The position numbers and the translations under genes were made by a program. From the NCBI GenBank assembly GCA_963677065.1, contig OY781872.1, forward strand, positions 241,419-305,418: a stretch of 64,000 bases of DNA. Reading direction: 5' to 3'. The notes beneath the pieces were generated by a model, which worked only from the letters and a program-made list of their open reading frames with translations, was not told where the DNA came from and made no database searches. The DNA comes from an uncultured Methanoregula sp. (GTDB lineage Archaea > Halobacteriota > Methanomicrobia > Methanomicrobiales > Methanospirillaceae). Positions 3,276 to 19,048 of the stretch are shown piece after piece. Numbering within the stretch: position 1 is the first letter of the stretch; every line of letters starts with the position of its first letter.

Positions 3276-3641
3276 ATGAGAACCGATCTTCGCATATACG
3301 CCCTGATTGCCCTGGGCGGATTCCTCGGGGCGGTCCTGCGGTTCCTCATCGATGAACAGATCCCATCGCTCCCCGGGACACTTGGGGTCAATTTCCTCGG
3401 CTGTATCGCGATGGGCATGTTCATGTACGAATCGATCTACATAGGGAAATTCAGCCGTGAGACCCGGATTTTTTTTGGCGTGGGCCTGATCAGCGCCTTT
3501 ACCACATTCTCTACCCTTGCAGTGCAGAGTTTTGCTTCATCACCCGCAGTTGCAGTCCTGAACATTGCAGCCAATCTCGTACTCGGGCTCTTCGGGATAT
3601 TTGTCGGCAGGTACATCATCACCTACCAGAGAGGAATCTGA
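3276..3641 (+). CDS. crcB: fluoride channel CrcB/FluC, copy 1
   Basis: An internal ATG at 3276 in ORF 3048-3641 gives a 4-TM protein of about 121 aa, [23 protein letters not shown]...NFLGC...AFTTFSTLA. Confidence 0.85.
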
Positions 3642-4640: not shown

Positions 4641-4928
4641 CCTAATCCGAGCCCTTAACGAGCTCCGTTTCCCTCTTCCCGGATACCACTGCAGGTTTCC
4701 ACGGGAAATGATGCCAACCAAACAGAAAAAGTCACCATTTTTCGCCCTATTTTAAAAAATAATGGCAATTTAACGAATTCAAGCGTGCAATATAGCAGCC
4801 TTCCAATGGCCGTCATTTTTGTCACCTGCATCATCCCATCCAATGGGAGAAATGCCCGCAGAACGCGAATATGAACGTTTTTCAAATTTACGTCGGAGAA
4901 CTAGTCCGGATTCAGCCGGGGATATAAA
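4641..4928. repeat. dispersed non-coding repeat, copy 1 (about 290 bp)
   Basis: Aligns by eye along its whole length with 12659-12946, roughly four-fifths identical with a few small indels. It has an AT-rich core (TTTTAAAAAATAATGGCAATTTAACGAATTCAAGCGTGCAATATAGC) flanked by GC-rich arms. Boundaries are approximate. Confidence 0.8.
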
Positions 4929-4931
4929 CGT

Positions 4932-5150
4932 TCAGTCGATATCTGCCGTTTCGTGCTCTTCCTCATAACTGAACACTTCTTCGATATTCACATCAAAAAA
5001 CCGGGAGATCCTGAAAGCAAGGTCGAGCGAGGGGACGTATTTTCTGTTTTCTATGGCAAGAATGGTCTGCCGGGTGACACCGGTAGCCTGCGCCAGATCT
5101 TCCTGAGTGAGATCGTGCATTGCCCGGAAAACTTTGATCTTATTCTTCAT
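4932..5150 (-). CDS. XRE/Cro-C1 family helix-turn-helix regulator
   Basis: The ATG at 5150 gives 72 aa, MKNKIKVFRAMHDLTQEDLAQATGVTRQTILAIENRKYVPSLDLAFRISRFF. The start overlaps the stop of the upstream membrane-protein gene by 11 nt. Confidence 0.85.
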   Translation of the reverse strand: MKNKIKVFRAMHDLTQEDLAQATGVTRQTILAIENRKYVPSLDLAFRISRFFDVNIEEVFSYEEEHETADID

Positions 5151-5586
5151 CGGTCTCCCAGTCCCCGTATTTCCGGGCATAGTACATCCGGAACCCGACA
5201 TAGAGAAAGATCATCAGACAGAGAAGCCCAAGCTGGAGATATCCGATCATCTTCGGGGTGAAGAGTCCCACCGGGCGCCCGATGAAACGTTCCTTTGAGA
5301 ATTCCGGAACATAGAGGAGCTCCATGACCGCCAGGATCGAGATCGCACAAAACCCGACCCAGAAGATCTGGAATGTCCGCAGCACGGCCTGTTCGGTGAT
5401 CTTTGCACTGCGTTCATCCTCGCTCATATCAACGACCATTCTCCGGATCAGATACGCGAGCGCAACCGCTATGATAAACGCAGCTTCGATGATGAGAGGA
5501 TTATGGATCTCCACGGAATACCAGAAAATGGCAAGAAGGATGAGAGAGATGCAGCCGATCAGGAGATAGAATACATTTTTTTTCAT
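5140..5586 (-). CDS. 4-TM membrane protein, DUF2178-like (partner of the XRE regulator)
   Basis: 148 aa with hydrophobic helices and a MSEDER segment. The pairing of a membrane protein with a small XRE regulator is as I recall for DUF2178. The family call is from memory. Confidence 0.65.
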   Translation of the reverse strand: MKKNVFYLLIGCISLILLAIFWYSVEIHNPLIIEAAFIIAVALAYLIRRMVVDMSEDERSAKITEQAVLRTFQIFWVGFCAISILAVMELLYVPEFSKERFIGRPVGLFTPKMIGYLQLGLLCLMIFLYVGFRMYYARKYGDWETDEE

Positions 5587-9928: not shown

Positions 9929-11146
9929 ATGGCAATTGATTCAGGAGCAACAGCATGGATCCTCGCCTCAACGGCGCTCGTCATGATCATGACGCCGGGC
10001 GTTGGTCTTTTCTACGGGGGTCTTGTCCGGAAGAAAAACTTCATCAACATGATCACCCTTTCGTTCGTTGCCTTTGCACTCGTCAGCATCCAGTGGGTGC
10101 TCTTCGGGTACTCGCTGGCATTCAGCAATGATCCCACAAGTTCGTTCAACGGGTTCATCGGCAACTTACAGTATCTCGGATTAAACAATGTGGGCATGGA
10201 TCCCGGGCCGTACAGTTCGGTAATACCAGGTCTTCTGTACATGGTCTTCCAGCTGGTCTTCGCAACAGTGACCATGGCCATAGTGACATCGGGATTTGCA
10301 GAACGTATCAAGTTCAGCTCGTACCTCATCTTTGCACTTCTCTGGACCACGATTGTCTATGATCCGCTGGCCCACTGGGTGTGGGGCGGTGGCTGGACAG
10401 CCCAGTTCGGCGCAGTGGACTTTGCAGGAGGCACGGTCGTCCACATCAGTTCGGGTTTTGCGGCGCTTGCGCTTGCGATCGTGATCGGCAAACGTGTCGG
10501 ATATGGCAAGTACGCCATGGAACCGGCCAACATCCCCTGGTCGATTCTCGGTGCGGCACTGCTCTGGTTTGGCTGGTTCGGATTCAACGCGGGTAGTGCA
10601 GTTGCAGCAAACGGCCTTGCATCCGTTGCATTCGTTACAACCAACACGGCAGCTGCAGCAGGTGCCCTTGCATGGATGCTCGTTAGCTGGGCTCACGGCG
10701 GCAAACCAAGCTCGCTCGGGTTTGTCAGCGGTGCAGTAGCCGGTCTTGTCGCGATAACTCCGGCAGCAGGTTACGTGACACCAATGGCATCGATCATTAT
10801 CGGGGCAGTAGGCGGTATACTGTGCTACAGCATCATGCTCTGGCGCCAGAAGAAAGGTGTTGACGAAAGCCTCGATGCCTGGGCAGTCCACGGTATGGGC
10901 GGCCTCTGGGGCGCCCTTGCAACCGGTATCTTTGCCGTGGCATCCATCAACGGCATATCGGGCCTGATTGAGGGTAATACAAACCAGTTCATTGCACAGC
11001 TTGTCGGTGCCGGTGCGGCGGTCATCTACGCATTCGTAGTTACCTATATACTCGCGGTTATCATCGACAAAACGATCGGATTGCGTGTATCGGAGGAGGA
11101 AGAATATGTCGGACTTGACATATCGCAGCATGGGGAACGGTGCTGA
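9929..11146 (+). CDS. amt: ammonium transporter (Amt family)
   Basis: 405 aa multi-TM protein with [36 protein letters not shown] and [10 protein letters not shown]. Confidence 0.95.
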
Positions 11147-11491
<345 letters not shown>

Positions 11492-11535
11492 CAACACATC
11501 CATAAAAACACCTCTGTCCTAAATCACATCCGCTT

Positions 11536-11567
11536 CCGGCCCGGGAAAATCCCCCGGGCCGGTTTTT
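11536..11567 (+). terminator. perfect 10-bp GC hairpin followed by T5, after glnK
   Basis: CCGGCCCGGG-AAAATCC-CCCGGGCCGG followed by TTTTT. Confidence 0.55.
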
Positions 11568-11725
11568 AAAAAACTGATTCGGAGCAGGAAACACCGGAGA
11601 CAGAATGTATGGTTGTCTGTAGCGGAATCATGTCTGCAGGACAAAAAACACCACGGGATTTCTTCTTTTCTCATGACAGATCCACCCTTTCCCGAAGGGT
11701 CCGGATCGGGAAGTGAAAACCGGTT

Positions 11726-12073
11726 ATGAAGATGATATGGGCAGTCATCCGGCCAGAGTCGGCGCAAAAGGTGATAACCGCTCTCGATACCGCCGGGATC
11801 GGGGGGATGACCCGGCTCCACGTAACAGGGCACGGCAGGGAGATGGGAATTGCCCTTGGAACAGTCCGTTATACGGAAATTCCCAAGGAGATGCTGATGC
11901 TCGTTGTTCCGGACAATGAAGTAGCAAGAGCGGTGACAATCATCCGGTCGGAAGCAAAGACCGCTGCGAAGAGTACACTCGCTGAAGGCTCAATCGGCGA
12001 CGGAAAGATCTTCGTTACCTTTGTTGATGATTCATTCCCGATTCGTACAGCTGGAAAAACCGGCGGAGCATGA
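11726..12073 (+). CDS. PII-superfamily protein, NifI1-like (second copy, outside the nif operon)
   Basis: 115 aa, MKMIWAVIRPESAQKVITALDTAGIGGMTRLHVTGHGRE...[11 protein letters not shown]. It parallels the nif-linked NifI1 at 53568-53894. Confidence 0.75.
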   Translation: MKMIWAVIRPESAQKVITALDTAGIGGMTRLHVTGHGREMGIALGTVRYTEIPKEMLMLVVPDNEVARAVTIIRSEAKTAAKSTLAEGSIGDGKIFVTFVDDSFPIRTAGKTGGA

Positions 12074-12525
12074 AAATGAAGCAAATCATCGCCATCCTCC
12101 GGGAGGAACAGGTTGAGAATACCAAACAGTCCCTGCTCGCCATAGGAATTATGGGAGTAACCTTCCTGTATGCCACCGGCCGAGGCCAGCAAAAGGGGAA
12201 AGTCAGCGCACGGGAACTGGGTAACACATTAACCAGAAATATGAGGATGCAGCTGGTAAACGCCCCTTCCAGGAATGGCGCACCGGAAGCCGGAGCCGGA
12301 ATAACCGGATCTGCAGATCACATGGATACTGAGTTCTCGTTCGGGTTTTTGCCAAAACGGATGCTCATCATCGTTGCATACGATGAAGATGTCAACCGGA
12401 TCGTTCAGGCAATCGTGGATGCCAACCAGACCGGCCGCCATGGCGACGGGAGGATCTTCATCTGCCCGATGATCAGTGCCATGCGGGTCAGAACCGGGGA
12501 GCTGGGCGATATGGCCCTGTCATGA
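12070..12525 (+). CDS. PII-superfamily protein with a long T-loop insertion, NifI2-like (second copy)
   Basis: 151 aa with an ATGA overlap with the preceding gene. MKMKQIIAILREEQVENTKQSL...ATGRGQQKG, then a long insert, then RHGDGRIFICPM...RVRTGE. The architecture matches NifI2 at 53900-54325. Confidence 0.7.
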   Translation: MKMKQIIAILREEQVENTKQSLLAIGIMGVTFLYATGRGQQKGKVSARELGNTLTRNMRMQLVNAPSRNGAPEAGAGITGSADHMDTEFSFGFLPKRMLIIVAYDEDVNRIVQAIVDANQTGRHGDGRIFICPMISAMRVRTGELGDMALS

Positions 12526-12946: not shown

Positions 12947-13142
12947 ATATGCGGGTGAAGCTTCCCGCTGAGCCGCATCGCTTGGTCATGACTTTGGAAT
13001 CATGCCGGCAGGATTCTGTTTTTCAAAAAGTCCGGGAAGGCAGATGCACCGCGGAAAACCCGGCAAATTTTTTGTCGTGTGGGACACCGCCCGCACAGAA
13101 AAATTCTGATTCACGTTTCTTTAAAAAAAATAAAAAAAATCT

Positions 13143-13355
13143 TTATTCCTTCGCTCTCAGCGAATGAATCTTGATTATCCCGGCGCAGGACTTGCAGGTA
13201 TAGAACTCGTCCTTCCAGCACTTCTCGCAGCCCCACCGGCCGCAGAGCACGCACTGCCGGAGCTCCGAGACCGCGTGCGGCGTATTGCAGAGATCGCAGA
13301 TGTACCGGGAGAAACTCCCGGACTCTTTTGACGGCGGCTCTCCCTGCTTGCGCAT
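13143..13355 (-). CDS. small zinc-ribbon protein with four CxxC pairs (hypothetical)
   Basis: The ATG at 13355 gives 70 aa, avoiding overlap with the upstream gene. The ORF extends to 13472. Cysteine pairs are CDLC, CVLC, CEKC and CKSC. It is the last gene of the operon. Confidence 0.5.
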   Translation of the reverse strand: MRKQGEPPSKESGSFSRYICDLCNTPHAVSELRQCVLCGRWGCEKCWKDEFYTCKSCAGIIKIHSLRAKE

Positions 13356-13401
13356 GACCGGGATCTGCTCTTTCAAATCCCGGAAGAGATCGCCCGTTGG
13401 A

Positions 13402-13758
13402 TTACTTTTTGGCGGTTCCTTTCGAAACAAGCTCTTTTTCAACACGGTCAAGCCGGGCCTCCAGCTGCACAAGATCGTTCTGCATCTCTGCTTCGAATTT
13501 TTTCAGGTCAGCAAGACGGGCCTCGTCCTGTTCGAGCTCCTGGTACTTCGCTGCCTTGAAACTGCCGAGCTTCTTCTGGTCCACGAGCTGCCACTCTTCG
13601 ACCAGGCTCTGGAACCGGCGGTCGAGATACTCGTCCACCCTGCTCTCGATCGGGCGGGAGAGATCGATGTCGCCCTTTGCTCCCCGTATGTAATAATACA
13701 CAAGGAAGAGGATGACGACAAGGATGATGACGAGAATGATAAAGGTCAGAAGATCCAT
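13402..13758 (-). CDS. single-pass membrane coiled-coil protein, EEW-motif paralog (hypothetical)
   Basis: ATG at 13758 (GTG at 13767 also possible), 1 nt after the upstream stop. TM helix LLTFIILVIILVVILFLVYYYI, then DEYLDRRFQSLVEEWQL and a heptad-rich helix. Confidence 0.6.
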   Translation of the reverse strand: MDLLTFIILVIILVVILFLVYYYIRGAKGDIDLSRPIESRVDEYLDRRFQSLVEEWQLVDQKKLGSFKAAKYQELEQDEARLADLKKFEAEMQNDLVQLEARLDRVEKELVSKGTAKK

Positions 13759-13759
13759 C

Positions 13760-13981
13760 TCAGACACGCTCCTTCAGCCGCTTTGCACGGTTCTCGAGCT
13801 CGGTGAGCTTGTCCGAGGCCGCATGCGACGATGCTTTCAGGGACGGGATCTGCCGCTCGACTGCATCCAGCCGGCTCGTGAAATCCGCGATATCGATGGA
13901 CCGGGCAAGATCCCATTCCTCGACGATCATCTGCATCCGGCGGTCAACATAGGCATTGAGATAATCAGTCATGCCGATCAT
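13760..13981 (-). CDS. small soluble coiled-coil protein, EEW-motif paralog (hypothetical)
   Basis: 73 aa with an ATGA overlap with the upstream gene. Motif NAYVDRRMQMIVEEWDL. Confidence 0.55.
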   Translation of the reverse strand: MIGMTDYLNAYVDRRMQMIVEEWDLARSIDIADFTSRLDAVERQIPSLKASSHAASDKLTELENRAKRLKERV

Positions 13982-14289
13982 ACGGACTTCTCCAGCGAGG
14001 TTATGAGTTCATCCAGGTTTTTTGTCCGTTTCTCAAGCACGCTCTTCTCTGCGATCAGGTCGCTTATCTCGTTTGTCACGCTCGCGAGGCGGTTCTCCAG
14101 CTTGTGCAGGTCGGTCTCGGTCAAGAGCTCCCATTCCTCGATGACCGATGCGAACGTTGTATCGAAATAGGCATCGAGCGTCTTGTCCATCGAGGGGAGC
14201 CTCGACTCGATGGCACCGGGGAGTTCTGAGACCTGGTCCCAGAAAGCAGGGGCGGTCGGGTTCTGGTTCTGGTTTACTACCGGGTACAT
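13978..14289 (-). CDS. small soluble coiled-coil protein, EEW-motif paralog (hypothetical)
   Basis: 103 aa. The ATG immediately follows the TAA of the upstream gene. Motif DAYFDTTFASVIEEWELLTETDLHKLENRL. Confidence 0.6.
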   Translation of the reverse strand: MYPVVNQNQNPTAPAFWDQVSELPGAIESRLPSMDKTLDAYFDTTFASVIEEWELLTETDLHKLENRLASVTNEISDLIAEKSVLEKRTKNLDELITSLEKSV

Positions 14290-14691
14290 TTATTTCACCT
14301 TCTTCTCCTCTTCGCTGATCTTGCCCATCATGTTGTCGAGCTTCCTTGTCTTGACATAATTCTCAAGCCGGGTCAGCCTTGTCTCGACGAGCTTTTCCTT
14401 TGCAAAGATACCGGTCTCAAGAGTCCTGTTCTCATCCTCAACGGACCGGATATCTGCGGTCTGCTCCGGGGACAAGCGGGTGAACGGGAAGTTCTTGGCA
14501 TCCGCATGCTGCTGGAGCAGCTTGAGTTTGTCCTTCTCAAGTTCTATCTCAATCTGGCGGTTGGACGTTTTCATCAAGCGCACTTCACGGATCATGAGGT
14601 ACACGATGAAGATGCCGATAACTGCCAGGGCAATGATGATGACGGTATCGTTGATCACCGGGGCCTGGACGATAACGGTCGGGTCTGCCAT
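14290..14691 (-). CDS. single-pass membrane coiled-coil protein (hypothetical)
   Basis: 133 aa with a strong SD (GAGGTGAGG) before the ATG. TM helix VIIIALAVIGIFIVYLMI followed by a charged helical region. Confidence 0.6.
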   Translation of the reverse strand: MADPTVIVQAPVINDTVIIIALAVIGIFIVYLMIREVRLMKTSNRQIEIELEKDKLKLLQQHADAKNFPFTRLSPEQTADIRSVEDENRTLETGIFAKEKLVETRLTRLENYVKTRKLDNMMGKISEEEKKVK

Positions 14692-14747
14692 ATTACCTCA
14701 CCTCAATGCAACAGGAAATAATTTCATTCATTCCCATGCATCCTGTT

Positions 14748-15311
14748 TCAGAGCTCATCTTTTCCCTTCAGGCGATTCTTGACAGCAGCCGAGGTCTCGC
14801 CGGCAACTTTTCCGGCCGTGTCCGCTGCTTTTTTTGTTCCGGTCTTGACAGCATCAGCGGTCTTTGCAGCACCGGTCTTCACGGATTCTGCAACTTTTTT
14901 TGTCTGGGTTTTCACGGTGCCGGCAGTCTTTGCAGCCTCGGCCGAGACCGTTTCGCCTGTTTTACGGATCTTCGTGTCGAGCTTCCCGACACCTTCTGAA
15001 AATGACTTGTTGGCATCGCCGGCAGCTTTCTGCACCTTCTCCTTTAAGGGAGGCGTCCTCTTCACGGTCACTTCAGCGCCTTCCTTAAGGCCGAGGGCTT
15101 TCAAATCTTCCCCGCTGATGCGGACTTCGCCTTCCCCAACCATGCGGTCGGCGATCACGGTTACGGTAACTGTCTTCTTGCCGGCCTCGTTTACGAGGTC
15201 CACGTGATCTCCTTCAGCAATCCCAAGCTCGGTGAGCTTTGATTCATGGAGACGTACTCTCCCGTGGCTCGGGAACTTCCGCTCCTTTATGATCAATCGC
15301 AAGTCAGCCAT
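14748..15311 (-). CDS. CDC48/VAT-N-like (AbrB-related) double-psi barrel domain fused to a K/T/A-rich 11-mer repeat tail
   Basis: 187 aa. The N-terminal domain has two similar halves, GRVRLHESKLTELGIAEGDHVDLV and GEVRISGEDLKALGLKEGAEVTVK. The C-terminal tail has an 11-residue period: AAKTAGTVKTQ / TKKVAESVKTG / AAKTADAVKTG / TKKAADTAGKV. Confidence 0.7.
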   Translation of the reverse strand: MADLRLIIKERKFPSHGRVRLHESKLTELGIAEGDHVDLVNEAGKKTVTVTVIADRMVGEGEVRISGEDLKALGLKEGAEVTVKRTPPLKEKVQKAAGDANKSFSEGVGKLDTKIRKTGETVSAEAAKTAGTVKTQTKKVAESVKTGAAKTADAVKTGTKKAADTAGKVAGETSAAVKNRLKGKDEL

Positions 15312-15402
15312 ACTAGCTTACCTTCACCGGAATACGATATAGGTTTTGCGTATCCGGTATTGCAGAAAAATACCGAGTGTAAGCGGGAAAAGAGATTCGA
15401 AT

Positions 15403-15858
15403 TTACGATCCGGGAAGTTTCAGGGGAATTGTTGTGACGTGCACGAAGGGAATTTTCGGGGAGAGGCCGAGCAGGCTCAGCGTGGCAGTGCCTTTAACCC
15501 GGAGGGTGATCTTTCCTTTTGCTACAGTGAAGACGAGAGCGCTCATCAGTTTCATGTTGTTGAGGGTCACCGGGATGGTGATCTCACTCTCGCCTTTCTT
15601 CACCGCAATATCGTTCTCGCTCCCGCAGGTTAAGTACGTCCAGTTGTCGCCATCCTGGTAGAAGACATTGAAACTGAGGGTCTTGATCGTTACCCCGATC
15701 AGGTTCGGGTTCACCACCGAGAGCTTGACACCAAGCGAGAGTGAATCCAGGGACAGCGATGTGAGCACGACATCTTTCACATCGATCTTCGGATCCCTGA
15801 CAAAAAGCCCGCAGCCGGAGTGCGCTGTTCCCGCAGATACGAGGGAAAGCCAGATCAC
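15403..15858 (-). CDS. LEA_2 / LEA14-like (WHy) domain lipoprotein
   Basis: 151 aa with a GTG start and a short signal ending in SGC. All-beta pattern VKDVVLTSLSLDSLSLGVKLSVVNPNLIGVTIKTLSFNVFYQ, typical of LEA_2. Confidence 0.6.
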   Translation of the reverse strand: MIWLSLVSAGTAHSGCGLFVRDPKIDVKDVVLTSLSLDSLSLGVKLSVVNPNLIGVTIKTLSFNVFYQDGDNWTYLTCGSENDIAVKKGESEITIPVTLNNMKLMSALVFTVAKGKITLRVKGTATLSLLGLSPKIPFVHVTTIPLKLPGS

Positions 15859-15907
15859 AGAACCACCCGGAAGGGAGACATAAAAAAGAGATTGGACGGT
15901 TGCTGCC

Positions 15908-16471
15908 TTATGCAGCGGCCTGGGCCTTTTTCACCGTGAAGGAGTAAGCAATCGCGATGATACCCATGACAATGCCAAACGCACCGGCAATGAACGGCAG
16001 GAGTGCGGCGACAATGAGCGGCATGCACAAGAGAAGAAGACCGAAGATGATGCTGATTATCCCGAGCACAGCGTTTCCCGCATCCTTTGCAGAAAAGCCC
16101 TGGAACAGGTGGGCGGCCCCGATGAAGATGGCCCAGAACCCGACAAAGATGACGAAGAACGAGAGCACGAAGACGGTGCTGTACAGCGGGTAACAGAGGA
16201 TCACGATACCGGCGATTATGTTGATGATCGCAAGGAAGATCTTCCAGCCCATATTCGTACGGTCGACTGCAAGACTGCAGAGGGCAAACAGCCCGCCCAC
16301 GAGCCAGTACGCTCCCATGAGCGTGATCAACAGCACCGTTGTCATGCCGGGAGTTGCAAGCAGCATGCATCCGATCAGGAGGGTCAGGATACCCCAGACG
16401 AGGAGCAGCCACCAGGGAAAGAGTTTTGCGTCAGTTATATCCGGGACAACAGAAGGAACTACGTCAGCCAT
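15908..16471 (-). CDS. HdeD/DUF308 family membrane protein
   Basis: 187 aa with six TM helices and the repeated DUF308 pattern (WWLLLVWGILTLLIGCMLLATPG...). Confidence 0.75.
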   Translation of the reverse strand: MADVVPSVVPDITDAKLFPWWLLLVWGILTLLIGCMLLATPGMTTVLLITLMGAYWLVGGLFALCSLAVDRTNMGWKIFLAIINIIAGIVILCYPLYSTVFVLSFFVIFVGFWAIFIGAAHLFQGFSAKDAGNAVLGIISIIFGLLLLCMPLIVAALLPFIAGAFGIVMGIIAIAYSFTVKKAQAAA

Positions 16472-16741
16472 CAGTCTATCACATGTGAATCATACTCCGA
16501 TTAAGTATATCTAGACTCCGGTTTTTGTTCCCGACGGGCACGTGGCGCCGCCATCCCCGGGCCGGACAGGAACGTCAGGGTTTATTATCCATGCCGCCTA
16601 GAGACCATGTGAGGCCGGATATTTTCTTTTATACATCCAGTTGAGTGATCCTGGAAAATACCCGTCGGGGTACGTAAAAGACCCCCGCCCTGTCCATGAA
16701 CACCGTTCCCTGCCGTTTTGCAGGAAGAACCGGAGGAATCC

Positions 16742-19048
16742 ATGAACCTTGAAGAAAAACTCGTGGTTGGAATAATTGATGACTGCATGCATACGGACAC
16801 CCCGCACGGGCGGGCCATCCAGCGGATTGCAGAAGGTCTTGAAGAATTCGGGATCTATGTAGGCGATGTTGCCTCCCCGTCTGACGCCCGGGCTGCGTAT
16901 TCGAATCTCCCGGCAGTCGACTGTATCCTCATCAACTGGAATCTCGGGGGAGATACCGAGAAGAAGCACAAGGAGACGCTCGGGCTTATCCACCAGATAC
17001 GGGAGCGCAACGGGGATATCCCGATCTTCCTCATGGCAGAACCCACAAGCGAGGCCCCGGCGTCGCTGACCGTGGATATGATCCGGGAGATCAGCGAGTA
17101 CATCTATGTCATGGAGGATACGCCCGAGTTCATTGCCGGGCGCATCATTGCCGCTGCCCGGCGTTACAAGGAGCGTCTCCTTCCGCCGTTTTTCGGGGAA
17201 CTGGTAAAGTTCTCGGAAGATTTTGAATATTCCTGGCATACCCCGGGCCATGCCGGGGGAACCGCGTTCCGGAAATCCGCAGCCGGCCGGCTTTTCCACG
17301 AGTTCTTCGGCGAACAGCTCTTCCGGTCCGATCTCTCCATCTCAGTTGGCGAGCTTGGATCCCTCCTCGACCACTCGGGGCCGGTGGGCGAGGCCGAGCG
17401 GTACGCAGCCAAGGTGTTCGGCGCCGACATGACGTACTTTGTCACGAACGGGACGTCGACTGCAAACAAGATCGTGTACTTTGGCAGGGTGACCAGGGAC
17501 GACATCGTTCTCGTTGACCGGAACTGCCACAAGTCGGCCGAGCATGCCCTGACGATGACCCATTCCATTGCGATCTACATGATACCGACACGGAACCGGT
17601 ACGGGATCATCGGCCCGATTCCCCTGGAGGAGATGGCTGCAGCCGCAATTAAGAAAAAGATTGCAGCCTGTCCGCTCGTAAAGCCCCTGAAAAACAAAAA
17701 GCCGGTCCACGCGGTTGTCACCAACTCGACCTACGACGGGCTCTGTTACCATGCAACTCAGGTGGAGGAACTGCTCGGTAAGAGCGTGGACAGCATCCAC
17801 TTTGATGAAGCCTGGTATGCCTATGCCCGGTTCAACCCGCTGTACCGGGACCGGTTTGCCATGCGGGACGGGGCAAAGGATGAGAAAGGCCCGACCGTCT
17901 TTGCAACCCAGTCCACCCACAAGCTCCTCGCCGCCCTCTCGCAGGCATCCATGATCCATATCCGGAACGGGCGGGTCCCCATCGATCACGGGAGGTTCAA
18001 CGAGGGGTTCATGATGCACAGCTCCACCTCGCCGCTCTACACGATCATCGCGTCTCTCGATGTATCCTCAAAGATGATGGACGGCGCCTCCGGCCGGCAC
18101 CTTACCGGTGAATCGATTGAAGAAGCGATCCGGTTCCGCCGCACCATGGCCCGGGTGGGAAAGGAGCTCTGTGCCGGGAAGAAGAAGACCGACTGGTGGT
18201 TCCCCATGTGGCAGCCGGACACGGTTGTCGATCCCAGGACAAAGAAGAAGATCGCCTTTGCCGATGCTGCAATCGAGACGCTCCGGGACAATCCCTCGTG
18301 CTGGGTGCTCCACCCGGGCGAGACCTGGCACGGGTTTTCAGGGCTTCCGGATGACTACTGCATGCTCGACCCCATCAAGGTCACGGTGCTGATGCCCGGC
18401 GTAAATACCGATGGTTCCCTTGCAGACTGGGGAGTCCCCGCAGCGGTTGTCGTGAAGTTCCTCGACACCCGCGGGATCATCAACGAAAAGTCCGGCGATT
18501 ATTCCATCCTCTTCCTCTTCTCGATGGGGATAACAAAAGGCAAGTGGGGCACGCTCGTTACCGAACTCTTCGAGTTCAAACGGCTGTATGACGAGAGTGC
18601 GCCGCTCGATCTGGTATTCCCCGACCTGGTGAGGAACTTCCCGGATACGTACGCGGGCAAGACATTGCGGGATCTCGTGGACGAGATGCACGCGTTCAAA
18701 AAGGAGAACCATATGTGCGAACGGCTCCAGAAAGCCTTCTCGATCCTGCCCGAACCGGCCATGACCTATGCGGAGACGTACTCCCATCTGGTCCGGGGCG
18801 ATGTCGAGCACCTGCCGCTTGCAAAAGCAAAAGACCGGATCATTGCAACGGGGATCGTTCCTTATCCCCCGGGAATCCCTCTGCTTGCCCCGGGCGAGAA
18901 AGTCGGCGGCAAAAACGAACCGGTGCTCCAGTACCTTTCCGTGCTGGAAGCGTTTGACCGGCGGTTCCCGGGTTTCGAGCACGACACTCACGGGATCGAA
19001 TGTGAGAAAGGCGAGTACAGGATGTACTGCCTCAAGGAGAATCTATGA
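16742..19048 (+). CDS. biodegradative Orn/Lys/Arg decarboxylase, AdiA/LdcI type (wing domain plus PLP fold-type I)
   Basis: ATG at 16742 preceded by GGAGG, giving 768 aa. PLP-lysine motif ATQSTHKLLAALSQASMIHIRNG. Long colinear matches to recalled AdiA/CadA blocks: NCHKS, FDEAWYAYARFNP, WHGF, MLDPIKV, FLFSMGITKGKWGTLV, PYPPGIP, FPGFEH. Confidence 0.9.
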   Translation: MNLEEKLVVGIIDDCMHTDTPHGRAIQRIAEGLEEFGIYVGDVASPSDARAAYSNLPAVDCILINWNLGGDTEKKHKETLGLIHQIRERNGDIPIFLMAEPTSEAPASLTVDMIREISEYIYVMEDTPEFIAGRIIAAARRYKERLLPPFFGELVKFSEDFEYSWHTPGHAGGTAFRKSAAGRLFHEFFGEQLFRSDLSISVGELGSLLDHSGPVGEAERYAAKVFGADMTYFVTNGTSTANKIVYFGRVTRDDIVLVDRNCHKSAEHALTMTHSIAIYMIPTRNRYGIIGPIPLEEMAAAAIKKKIAACPLVKPLKNKKPVHAVVTNSTYDGLCYHATQVEELLGKSVDSIHFDEAWYAYARFNPLYRDRFAMRDGAKDEKGPTVFATQSTHKLLAALSQASMIHIRNGRVPIDHGRFNEGFMMHSSTSPLYTIIASLDVSSKMMDGASGRHLTGESIEEAIRFRRTMARVGKELCAGKKKTDWWFPMWQPDTVVDPRTKKKIAFADAAIETLRDNPSCWVLHPGETWHGFSGLPDDYCMLDPIKVTVLMPGVNTDGSLADWGVPAAVVVKFLDTRGIINEKSGDYSILFLFSMGITKGKWGTLVTELFEFKRLYDESAPLDLVFPDLVRNFPDTYAGKTLRDLVDEMHAFKKENHMCERLQKAFSILPEPAMTYAETYSHLVRGDVEHLPLAKAKDRIIATGIVPYPPGIPLLAPGEKVGGKNEPVLQYLSVLEAFDRRFPGFEHDTHGIECEKGEYRMYCLKENL

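Follow-up and report, generated by a model that had tools for sequence, protein, structure and literature searches.

What might six small genes, chained head to tail on one strand, be building in a methanogenic archaeon? The question is raised by a 64,000-nucleotide stretch of DNA from an uncultured Methanoregula species (contig OY781872.1 of assembly GCA_963677065.1, positions 241,419 to 305,418 of the forward strand), referred to here as the window, in which six genes, A to F, form a compact operon. We propose that the product of this operon is a non-enzymatic assembly, a scaffold or an adaptor, that sits on the cytoplasmic side of the membrane, a reading to which we assign a probability of roughly 55%. 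The genes, and the putative signals that bound them, lie at the following positions of the window.

Gene A, 14748..15311, minus strand: 187 amino acids, a CDC48_N barrel with a tail of 11-residue repeats.
Gene B, 14290..14691, minus strand: 133 amino acids, a single-pass membrane anchor.
Gene C, 13978..14289, minus strand: 103 amino acids, a soluble protein with the EEW motif described below.
Gene D, 13760..13981, minus strand: 73 amino acids, the shortest soluble EEW-motif paralog.
Gene E, 13402..13758, minus strand: 118 amino acids, a membrane-anchored EEW-motif paralog.
Gene F, 13143..13451, minus strand: 102 amino acids from a TTG start at 13451, a Prok-RING_2 zinc finger.
Putative archaeal promoter (transcription factor B recognition element and TATA box, BRE/TATA), AAAACCTATATC, 15336..15347, minus strand: about 28 nucleotides upstream of the ATG of gene A.
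Likely archaeal oligo-T terminator, 13123..13139, minus strand: two runs of eight T directly after the stop codon of gene F.

Is this chain of open reading frames a genuine unit? An independent gene call on the public contig (locus L001) gave products of 187, 133, 103, 73, 118 and 102 amino acids. The original prediction, made by reading the window, had described the same six minus-strand reading frames, and all are present, the start of the last being the one correction. Its account of the spacing likewise holds in the sequence: 56 nucleotides separate A from B, with the Shine-Dalgarno element GAGGTGAGG upstream of B; the TAA of B is followed by the ATG of C without a spacer; an ATGA overlap joins the stop of C to the ATG of D; and D and E lie 1 nucleotide apart. 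Gene F had been read from an ATG at 13355, as a product of 70 amino acids. We place its start at the TTG at 13451, because its homologs are 99–107 amino acids long, share a conserved N-terminus (MTLWKKNW) and in some cases lack the internal methionine, and because GGAGG lies 6 nucleotides upstream of the TTG, inside E. The resulting 50-nucleotide overlap of E and F is retained in nearly all related loci and, together with the position of the GGAGG, makes it likely that translation of F is coupled to that of E.

An A/T-rich box equivalent to the putative BRE/TATA (GAAGATATTTACC or AAAATATATAAA) precedes gene A in nearly all related loci, about 28–36 nucleotides before the ATG. We infer a promoter function for this box, and its distance from the start codon leads us to predict a leaderless operon mRNA or one with a very short leader. 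At the other end, T-runs follow the stop codon of F in most related loci, as they do in the window, and the P-II and Amt genes beyond F lie on the opposite strand. Based on the conserved box before A and the T-runs after F, genes A to F read as one self-contained operon with its own predicted promoter and terminator. Just upstream of the putative BRE/TATA there is also a 6-bp inverted repeat, CGGTAT-N9-ATACCG (15353-15374, minus strand), which may bind a regulator or else form the terminator hairpin of the preceding LEA_2 gene.

The unit recurs well beyond the window. Our locus scan, which took one genome per species, found 80 loci; the Methanoregulaceae-type loci are numbered L001–L081, and with the Thermoplasmata-like sister loci considered below (L082–L091) the total is 91. 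The original prediction had called for a check of gene order in relatives, and the order is identical in 75 of the 81 loci, each from a different species, with nearly constant gene lengths and overlaps; the others are truncated at contig ends or damaged. Gene B is kept in 76 loci. Every gene is under purifying selection, with pairwise ratios of nonsynonymous to synonymous substitution rates (dN/dS) of 0.06–0.24. Judged by gene order and substitution pattern, the cassette is conserved as a block across the family Methanoregulaceae, far beyond what chance open reading frames would display. In one Methanoregula metagenome-assembled genome (MAG; L048:3406-4885), B-like matches at 3470-3604 and at 4879-5166 suggest that gene B is split by an insertion of about 1.3 kb, which may be a mobile element within the operon. 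Three apparent gene fusions, P0308 ("E-F"), P0231 ("C-D") and P0362, were considered as natural evidence of interaction and rejected as frameshifted reads.

What kinds of protein does the operon encode? Scans with Pfam, NCBIfam, PHROG and PADLOC detected no enzyme domain in the six products, only CDC48_N, Prok-RING_2 and weak coiled-coil matches, in agreement with the earlier view that no enzyme is recognizable and that a structural or scaffolding role, rather than metabolism, is the most reasonable inference. That view had also held that no family could be assigned, which proves wrong for two of the products, A and F; neither assignment by itself yields a function for them in this operon.

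The first of these combines two very different halves. Residues 1–88 of protein A (nucleotides 15048-15311) are, on the evidence of the structural model, a stand-alone double-psi beta-barrel (DPBB) of the Cdc48/VAT-N type. Residues 10–86 match Pfam CDC48_N above its cut-off of 35.1 bits (36.2 bits, E 7.1e-9); an AlphaFold2 model of residues 1–88 has a predicted local distance difference test score (pLDDT) of 81–88; and Foldseek superimposes the barrel on the DPBBs of p97/VCP/VAT N-domains over 83–90 residues with a root-mean-square deviation of 1.1–1.5 Å (E 2.5e-8 to 4e-7), the top matches being an Aeropyrum VCP-like DPBB, the p97/VCP N-domain and MSMEG_0858. Protein A thus shares the Nn barrel of Cdc48/p97/VAT in both sequence and structure, but it lacks the Nc beta-clam and the D1/D2 ATPase, and just the 11-residue repeats follow residue 88. 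Weak matches to AbrB/MazE-type families (E about 1e-3 to 0.08) are explained by the interrelatedness of cradle-loop barrels.

The tail, residues 89–187 (nucleotides 14751-15047), consists of about nine amphipathic, helical 11-residue repeats, and A is therefore the amphipathic-repeat protein that had been noticed in the operon, its periodicity being of 11 residues. At lags of 11, 22 and 33 the autocorrelation is 0.50, 0.63 and 0.42, respectively. The hydrophobic moment is greatest at 98.2 degrees, the signature of an 11/3 helix. Homologs of A measure 132, 143, 154, 165, 176 or 187 amino acids, steps of 11 that point to the gain and loss of whole repeats between species. LEA group 3 proteins, apolipoproteins and alpha-synuclein, a class of proteins that bind membranes or lipid surfaces reversibly, resemble this tail in their 11/3 periodicity, in being rich in K, A, T, G and V, and in having a variable number of repeats. 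The likeness does not extend to a significant sequence match with LEA_4 or apolipoprotein families (Apolipoprotein 17.7 bits against a cut-off of 90; ApoLp-III 18.5 against 36.3), and we know of no protein of this class that carries a Cdc48-N barrel.

Protein A ends in a conserved K-[D/E]-[D/E]-L, which is K-D-E-L in the window (14748-14762) and looks like a short docking motif. Orthologs, among them those of L057, L062, L070 and L075, end in KDEL, KDDL, KEL or KDL; a subgroup (P0125, P0126, P0131, P0166) has an acidic C-terminal stretch, DDPVFDDAGFDDEHH, instead. A further variant occurs in a MAG labelled "Thermococci" that holds a complete A–F cassette: its A ortholog (L065:3873-4760, 295 amino acids) has the barrel, the repeats and a C-terminal TrkA_C (RCK-C) ligand-binding domain (Pfam E 2.6e-12), which hints at control by a small ligand or a link to ion transport.

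Proteins B to E supply membrane anchors and candidate coiled coils. As originally noted, two products begin with a transmembrane helix: residues 16–34 of B (mean Kyte-Doolittle hydropathy 3.03) and residues 3–21 of E (3.46). Neither helix has a basic residue on its N-terminal side, and three or four follow on the C-terminal side (no K or R before and four after the helix in B). Given these positive-inside flanks, B and E are predicted to be single-pass proteins in an N-out/C-in orientation, with their helical regions in the cytoplasm.

Three of the products, C, D and E, had been described as paralogs sharing a motif followed by a heptad-rich helix, and profile comparisons confirm them as true paralogs, which we name the EEW-motif family: cross matches between their family hidden Markov models (HMMs) reach 1e-8 to 1e-13, and hhalign pairs the E family with the C family at a probability of 96.8% (E 2e-10). 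The family head is an aromatic amphipathic helix, x-L-D-x-Y-F/L-D-x-x-F-x-x-x-I-E-E-W-x-L, followed by a T/S-x-x-D cap and a coiled coil. In C the motif reads LDxYFDxxFxxxIEEWxL, again with an N-cap and a heptad coiled coil behind it, and in E it follows the transmembrane helix as RPxESRVDEYLDRRFxxxxEEWxL before the coiled coil. The heptad pattern after the motif in C, D and E is reached by at most 1 of 300 shuffled sequences, with scores of 0.78 for C and 0.75 for D against shuffle means of 0.42 and 0.40, respectively. Protein B was tried as a fourth paralog and ruled out (hhalign probability 2.9% against C, D and E); it forms a family of its own.

Neither the EEW-motif family nor the B family reaches the threshold of any Pfam family, although 7 of 23 E orthologs touch DUF7607 (best E 1.8e-5). 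Searches of PDB sequences with the profiles of F, the EEW family and B returned only generic zinc-finger or coiled-coil noise. An exhaustive HMMER search with the core profile of C, D and E collected 203 proteins at E <= 1e-3, including divergent groups beyond Methanoregulaceae, some with a transmembrane helix, some soluble and one near the Pfam Phasin threshold. One divergent member, P0473 (198 amino acids), has about four transmembrane helices before the motif; the EEW motif can therefore be attached to larger membrane domains.

In the last product, F, a basic N-terminal region and a single helix accompany a binuclear zinc finger. The eight cysteines of the finger form the four CxxC pairs that had been noticed at the outset (CDLC, CVLC, CEKC and CKSC). 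Seven of the cysteines (C52, C67, C70, C75, C78, C86 and C89) are invariant among 39 homologs, and C55 is nearly so. By profile match, F is a Prok-RING_2 finger: it scores 117.5 bits with Pfam PF14445 (cut-off 22.4, E 2.9e-34) in an end-to-end alignment (profile positions 4–56 of 56), and all 102 F homologs have the same match in their precomputed annotation. The Pfam family is essentially F itself. Prok-RING_2 reportedly stems from a 2011 survey of prokaryotic RING and treble-clef domains by Burroughs, Iyer and Aravind, in which not all prokaryotic RINGs are said to be ubiquitin-related; no function is attached to the family. The ligands of F are cysteines throughout, and their spacing, C-x2-C-x11-C-x2-C-x4-C-x2-C-x7-C-x2-C, suits a FYVE/PHD-type finger no less well than a classical C3HC4 RING. 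The flanks of the 81 loci contain no recurrent genes for E1, E2, a ubiquitin-like protein (Ubl) or JAB, and F is in this respect without the context of a RING E3 ligase. An AlphaFold2 model of F has a mean pLDDT of 83, rising to 94–98 in the core. The structure searches proposed in the original prediction were thus productive for A, as described above; they gave no significant match for F.

Is the cassette confined to one family? A metagenome scan with one divergent EEW group yielded ten further loci, L082–L091, on Thermoplasmata-like contigs, one of which carries a lysyl-tRNA synthetase identical to that of "Thermoplasmatales archaeon ex4484_6". These sister loci have a fixed order of tightly packed genes on one strand: a barrel protein, A', of 114–125 amino acids and Cdc48-N type (E 4e-8 to 1.5e-12 against the family-A HMM), three EEW paralogs, one of them membrane-anchored, and a double PRC-barrel protein (Pfam PRC E 2.9e-10 in L082), an HMM of which matches 9 of the 10 sister loci. 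A homolog of B follows in a single sister locus, L088 (E 4e-12), and F is found in none of the ten. Because a barrel protein and EEW paralogs also occur in these contigs, we regard the cassette core, on comparative grounds, as older than Methanoregulaceae; the zinc finger and the repeat tail would be lineage-specific additions, and the PRC barrel appears to fill the slot of F elsewhere. We make no claim of a membrane-targeting C-terminal helix in A', as the hydrophobic moment of its short tails is not convincingly above that of shuffled sequences (fraction reaching it 0.04–0.5). In two of the loci, L084:476-2744 and L091:4111-6620, arrays of clustered regularly interspaced short palindromic repeats (CRISPR) lie directly upstream of the sister cassette, seen as repeated SPWPTGRGPIEA-type translations.

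How might these proteins work together? We envisage a hetero-oligomeric bundle in which the coiled coils of B to E zip together and which the two anchors tether to the membrane. Protein A would lie on the membrane surface by means of its repeat tail and offer its barrel as a docking site for peptides or proteins, by analogy with Cdc48/VAT, in which the barrel is part of the N domain that binds substrates and adaptors. F, made in step with E, would dock on the bundle as a second protein-interaction module and would not act as a ubiquitin ligase. As an organizing scaffold or adaptor, the assembly would then bring some client to the membrane.

Which process such a scaffold might serve is a more tentative matter. 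Small proteins that combine a transmembrane helix with a coiled coil are typical of bacterial divisomes. In the sister cassette a PRC-barrel protein accompanies the Cdc48-N-type barrel protein and the EEW coiled coils, and in CdvA, too, a PRC barrel and a coiled coil occur together at the membrane. Since the archaeal PRC-barrel proteins CdvA and CdpB1-3, the latter from Haloferax, act in division (bioRxiv 10.1101/2023.03.28.534520), cell division or envelope organization is our leading specific guess, although we consider it a good deal more likely to be wrong than right. The comparison has clear limits: the Methanoregula operon has no PRC barrel and no linkage to ftsZ, sepF or ESCRT genes, and the sister PRC protein has two barrels and is a separate polypeptide. 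We speculate further, and with as little assurance, that the cassette represents an unrecognized archaeal membrane scaffold, cytoskeleton-like or organizing division or the envelope, whose ancient core of a Cdc48-N-type barrel and EEW coiled coils is common to Methanomicrobia and Thermoplasmata and is fitted with lineage-specific docking modules, a RING/FYVE-like finger in one case and a double PRC barrel in the other. If so, an archaeal membrane complex independent of ubiquitin would house two domains that are viewed as hallmarks of the ubiquitin and membrane-traffic systems of eukaryotes.

Several points weigh against the scaffold proposal or its extension to division. Association of the six proteins is a prediction, and searches of the literature yielded no expression, localization or phenotype data for the cassette. 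By a crude heptad measure compared with shuffled sequences, the signal in B is not significant, and the nearest Foldseek neighbours of F, which are FYVE, PHD and RING domains, fall short of significance (best E 0.27). The repeat tail of A is specific to its lineage and absent from the sister cassette, so that membrane binding may not belong to the core properties of the barrel protein. The division idea is thin in particular, as it leans on the PRC barrel of the sister cassette and not on the Methanoregula operon: the PRC HMM has no match in the window or in L001–L081, a search for reading frames with the tubulin signature revealed no ftsZ within the flanks of any of the 91 loci, and PRC barrels are also found in translation-related contexts (bioRxiv 10.1101/2023.03.28.534520). 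Finally, just one locus of the 91 has a Cdc48 ATPase nearby, a full-length gene for a Cdc48/VAT AAA+ ATPase about 900 nucleotides upstream of A (L053:630-3278).

Could the operon instead protect the envelope under stress? The original prediction had taken such a hint from the genes upstream, which are the following.

LEA_2 (151 amino acids) and DUF308/HdeD (187 amino acids), 15403-16471, minus strand: directly upstream of the operon.
Orn/Lys/Arg decarboxylase (776 amino acids), 16718-19048, plus strand: divergent from LEA_2/HdeD, and followed in L001 by an amino-acid permease.

According to this explanation, the tail of A and the anchored coiled coils would coat the membrane on its inner side and stabilize it against acid, osmotic or desiccation stress, alongside LEA_2 and HdeD. 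The 11/3 periodicity of the tail, which is typical of LEA group 3 proteins, apolipoproteins and synuclein, would suit such a coat, as would the weak ApoLp-III and Apolipoprotein matches, and 29 of 80 loci have an HdeD/DUF308 gene in one flank or the other, in three arrangements. The neighbourhood argument weakens, however, when the related loci are compared. The operon has its own conserved putative promoter; LEA_2 adjoins it solely in the three closest loci, L001–L003; DUF308 precedes the operon in some Methanoregula, follows it directly in Methanolinea-type loci and is absent from the flanks of most others, including most Methanoregula loci; and the decarboxylase/permease pair is not a recurrent neighbour in the flanks examined. 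We consider the DUF308 linkage worth noting but not strong. Moreover, in the Thermoplasmata-like lineage the older core has no repeat tail, and profile scans found no protein of the PspA/Vipp1 family, as would be expected of a Psp-type envelope-stress system, and PspB matches only at the level of noise (E 0.05–0.12). We therefore regard a stress-protection module as doubtful.

An unlikelier explanation is that the operon encodes a hub for quality control, or an adaptor for Cdc48 or the proteasome. The barrel of A and the finger of F would pick out membrane clients for an unfoldase or protease encoded elsewhere, or F would act in an E3-like manner with an archaeal ubiquitin-like modifier. The ubiquitin/Cdc48 pathway is where the families of both globular modules are best known; PRC-barrel genes, which replace F in the sister cassette, often adjoin Cdc48 ATPase genes (Zhao et al., bioRxiv 10.1101/2023.03.28.534520); and the Cdc48 gene of L053 stands just upstream of the cassette. 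Against this, the adjacency is seen at that locus only, one of 91, and AAA+ and protease genes are no more recurrent in the flanks of the 81 loci than are those for E1, E2, Ubl or JAB. Protein A, with the Nn barrel only, also lacks the Nc subdomain and an ATPase.

The coiled-coil proteins raise a further explanation, that the EEW proteins and the tail of A cover a hydrophobic storage inclusion or lipid body in the manner of phasins. The motif and helix had at first been likened to phasins or UbiK-type coiled coils, and the first half of this comparison recurs. Sub-threshold matches to Pfam Phasin (PF05597) are found for 12 of 23 C orthologs (best E 8e-5), the distant relative P0492 comes to 28.5 bits, just below the gathering threshold of 28.8, protein A has weak matches to phasin_2 besides those to apolipoproteins, and the EEW proteins share with PhaF/PhaI-type phasins a layout of amphipathic helix, N-cap (T/S-x-x-D) and zipper helix. 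The second half does not stand, as none of the six proteins matches UbiK/BMFP (PF04380) in Pfam at E <= 1. Even the phasin likeness is limited: all matches stay below the curated cut-off, no member of the window families reaches it (protein C of the window scores 17.2 bits), and the similarity is confined to the C-terminal zipper part of the profile (positions 55–125, its C-terminal 70 positions). Unlike phasins, two of the subunits, one of them an EEW paralog, are integral membrane proteins; no gene for polyhydroxyalkanoate (PHA) synthase or other storage functions lies in any flank examined; and, to our knowledge, PHA has not been reported from these methanogens. A phasin-like coat thus appears very unlikely. 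In a scan of viral contigs for genomic context, the phasin-like group P0449/P0475/P0492 had no match.

That the genes are a mobile, defence or toxin–antitoxin island, or a chance run of small unrelated reading frames, is hardly credible: they are small and unannotated and A has its weak AbrB/MazE-type matches, but the block is conserved throughout the family, sits at different chromosomal sites and has no mobility genes with it, every gene is under purifying selection, the PADLOC and PHROG scans gave coiled-coil noise only (E >= 1.9e-4), and the structure of A matches the single-chain Cdc48-N barrel rather than a dimeric antitoxin.

What would a membrane scaffold or adaptor of this composition add? 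As a system, the cassette matches no characterized kind. We found no paper that describes or tests it, although the 2011 Prok-RING_2 survey may already show the neighbourhood; a review of archaeal "dark matter" does not mention it, and the literature on phasins in methanogens and on Methanoregula proteomics contained nothing usable. Very few membrane-organizing components are at hand in archaeal cell biology, and the cassette offers a compact, deeply conserved and directly testable set of six proteins. Should the predicted complex form, it would define a new archaeal coiled-coil family, the EEW-motif proteins, and provide the first functional context for Prok-RING_2 and for stand-alone Cdc48-N barrels. 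It could also show how modules of the RING/FYVE-like and Cdc48-N-like kinds served prior to the ubiquitin system or outside it. The exchange of a zinc finger for a PRC barrel in another class may be viewed as a natural experiment on the role of the docking module. Even as a stress coat and nothing more, the assembly would be of a new type. With a function that is so far a proposal, the interest of the cassette lies mainly in its being a well-defined experimental target.

Other recurrent neighbours of the cassette encode CbiZ, PyrF, a restriction-modification methylase, a PAS kinase and DedA, which we take as unrelated housekeeping functions. On the far side of F, the plus strand of the window carries an ammonium transporter gene followed by three P-II genes (9929-12525), with glutamine synthetase further on in L001. 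Compared with ordinary P-II proteins, the product of the last P-II gene (12070-12525, 151 amino acids) has about 40 inserted residues.

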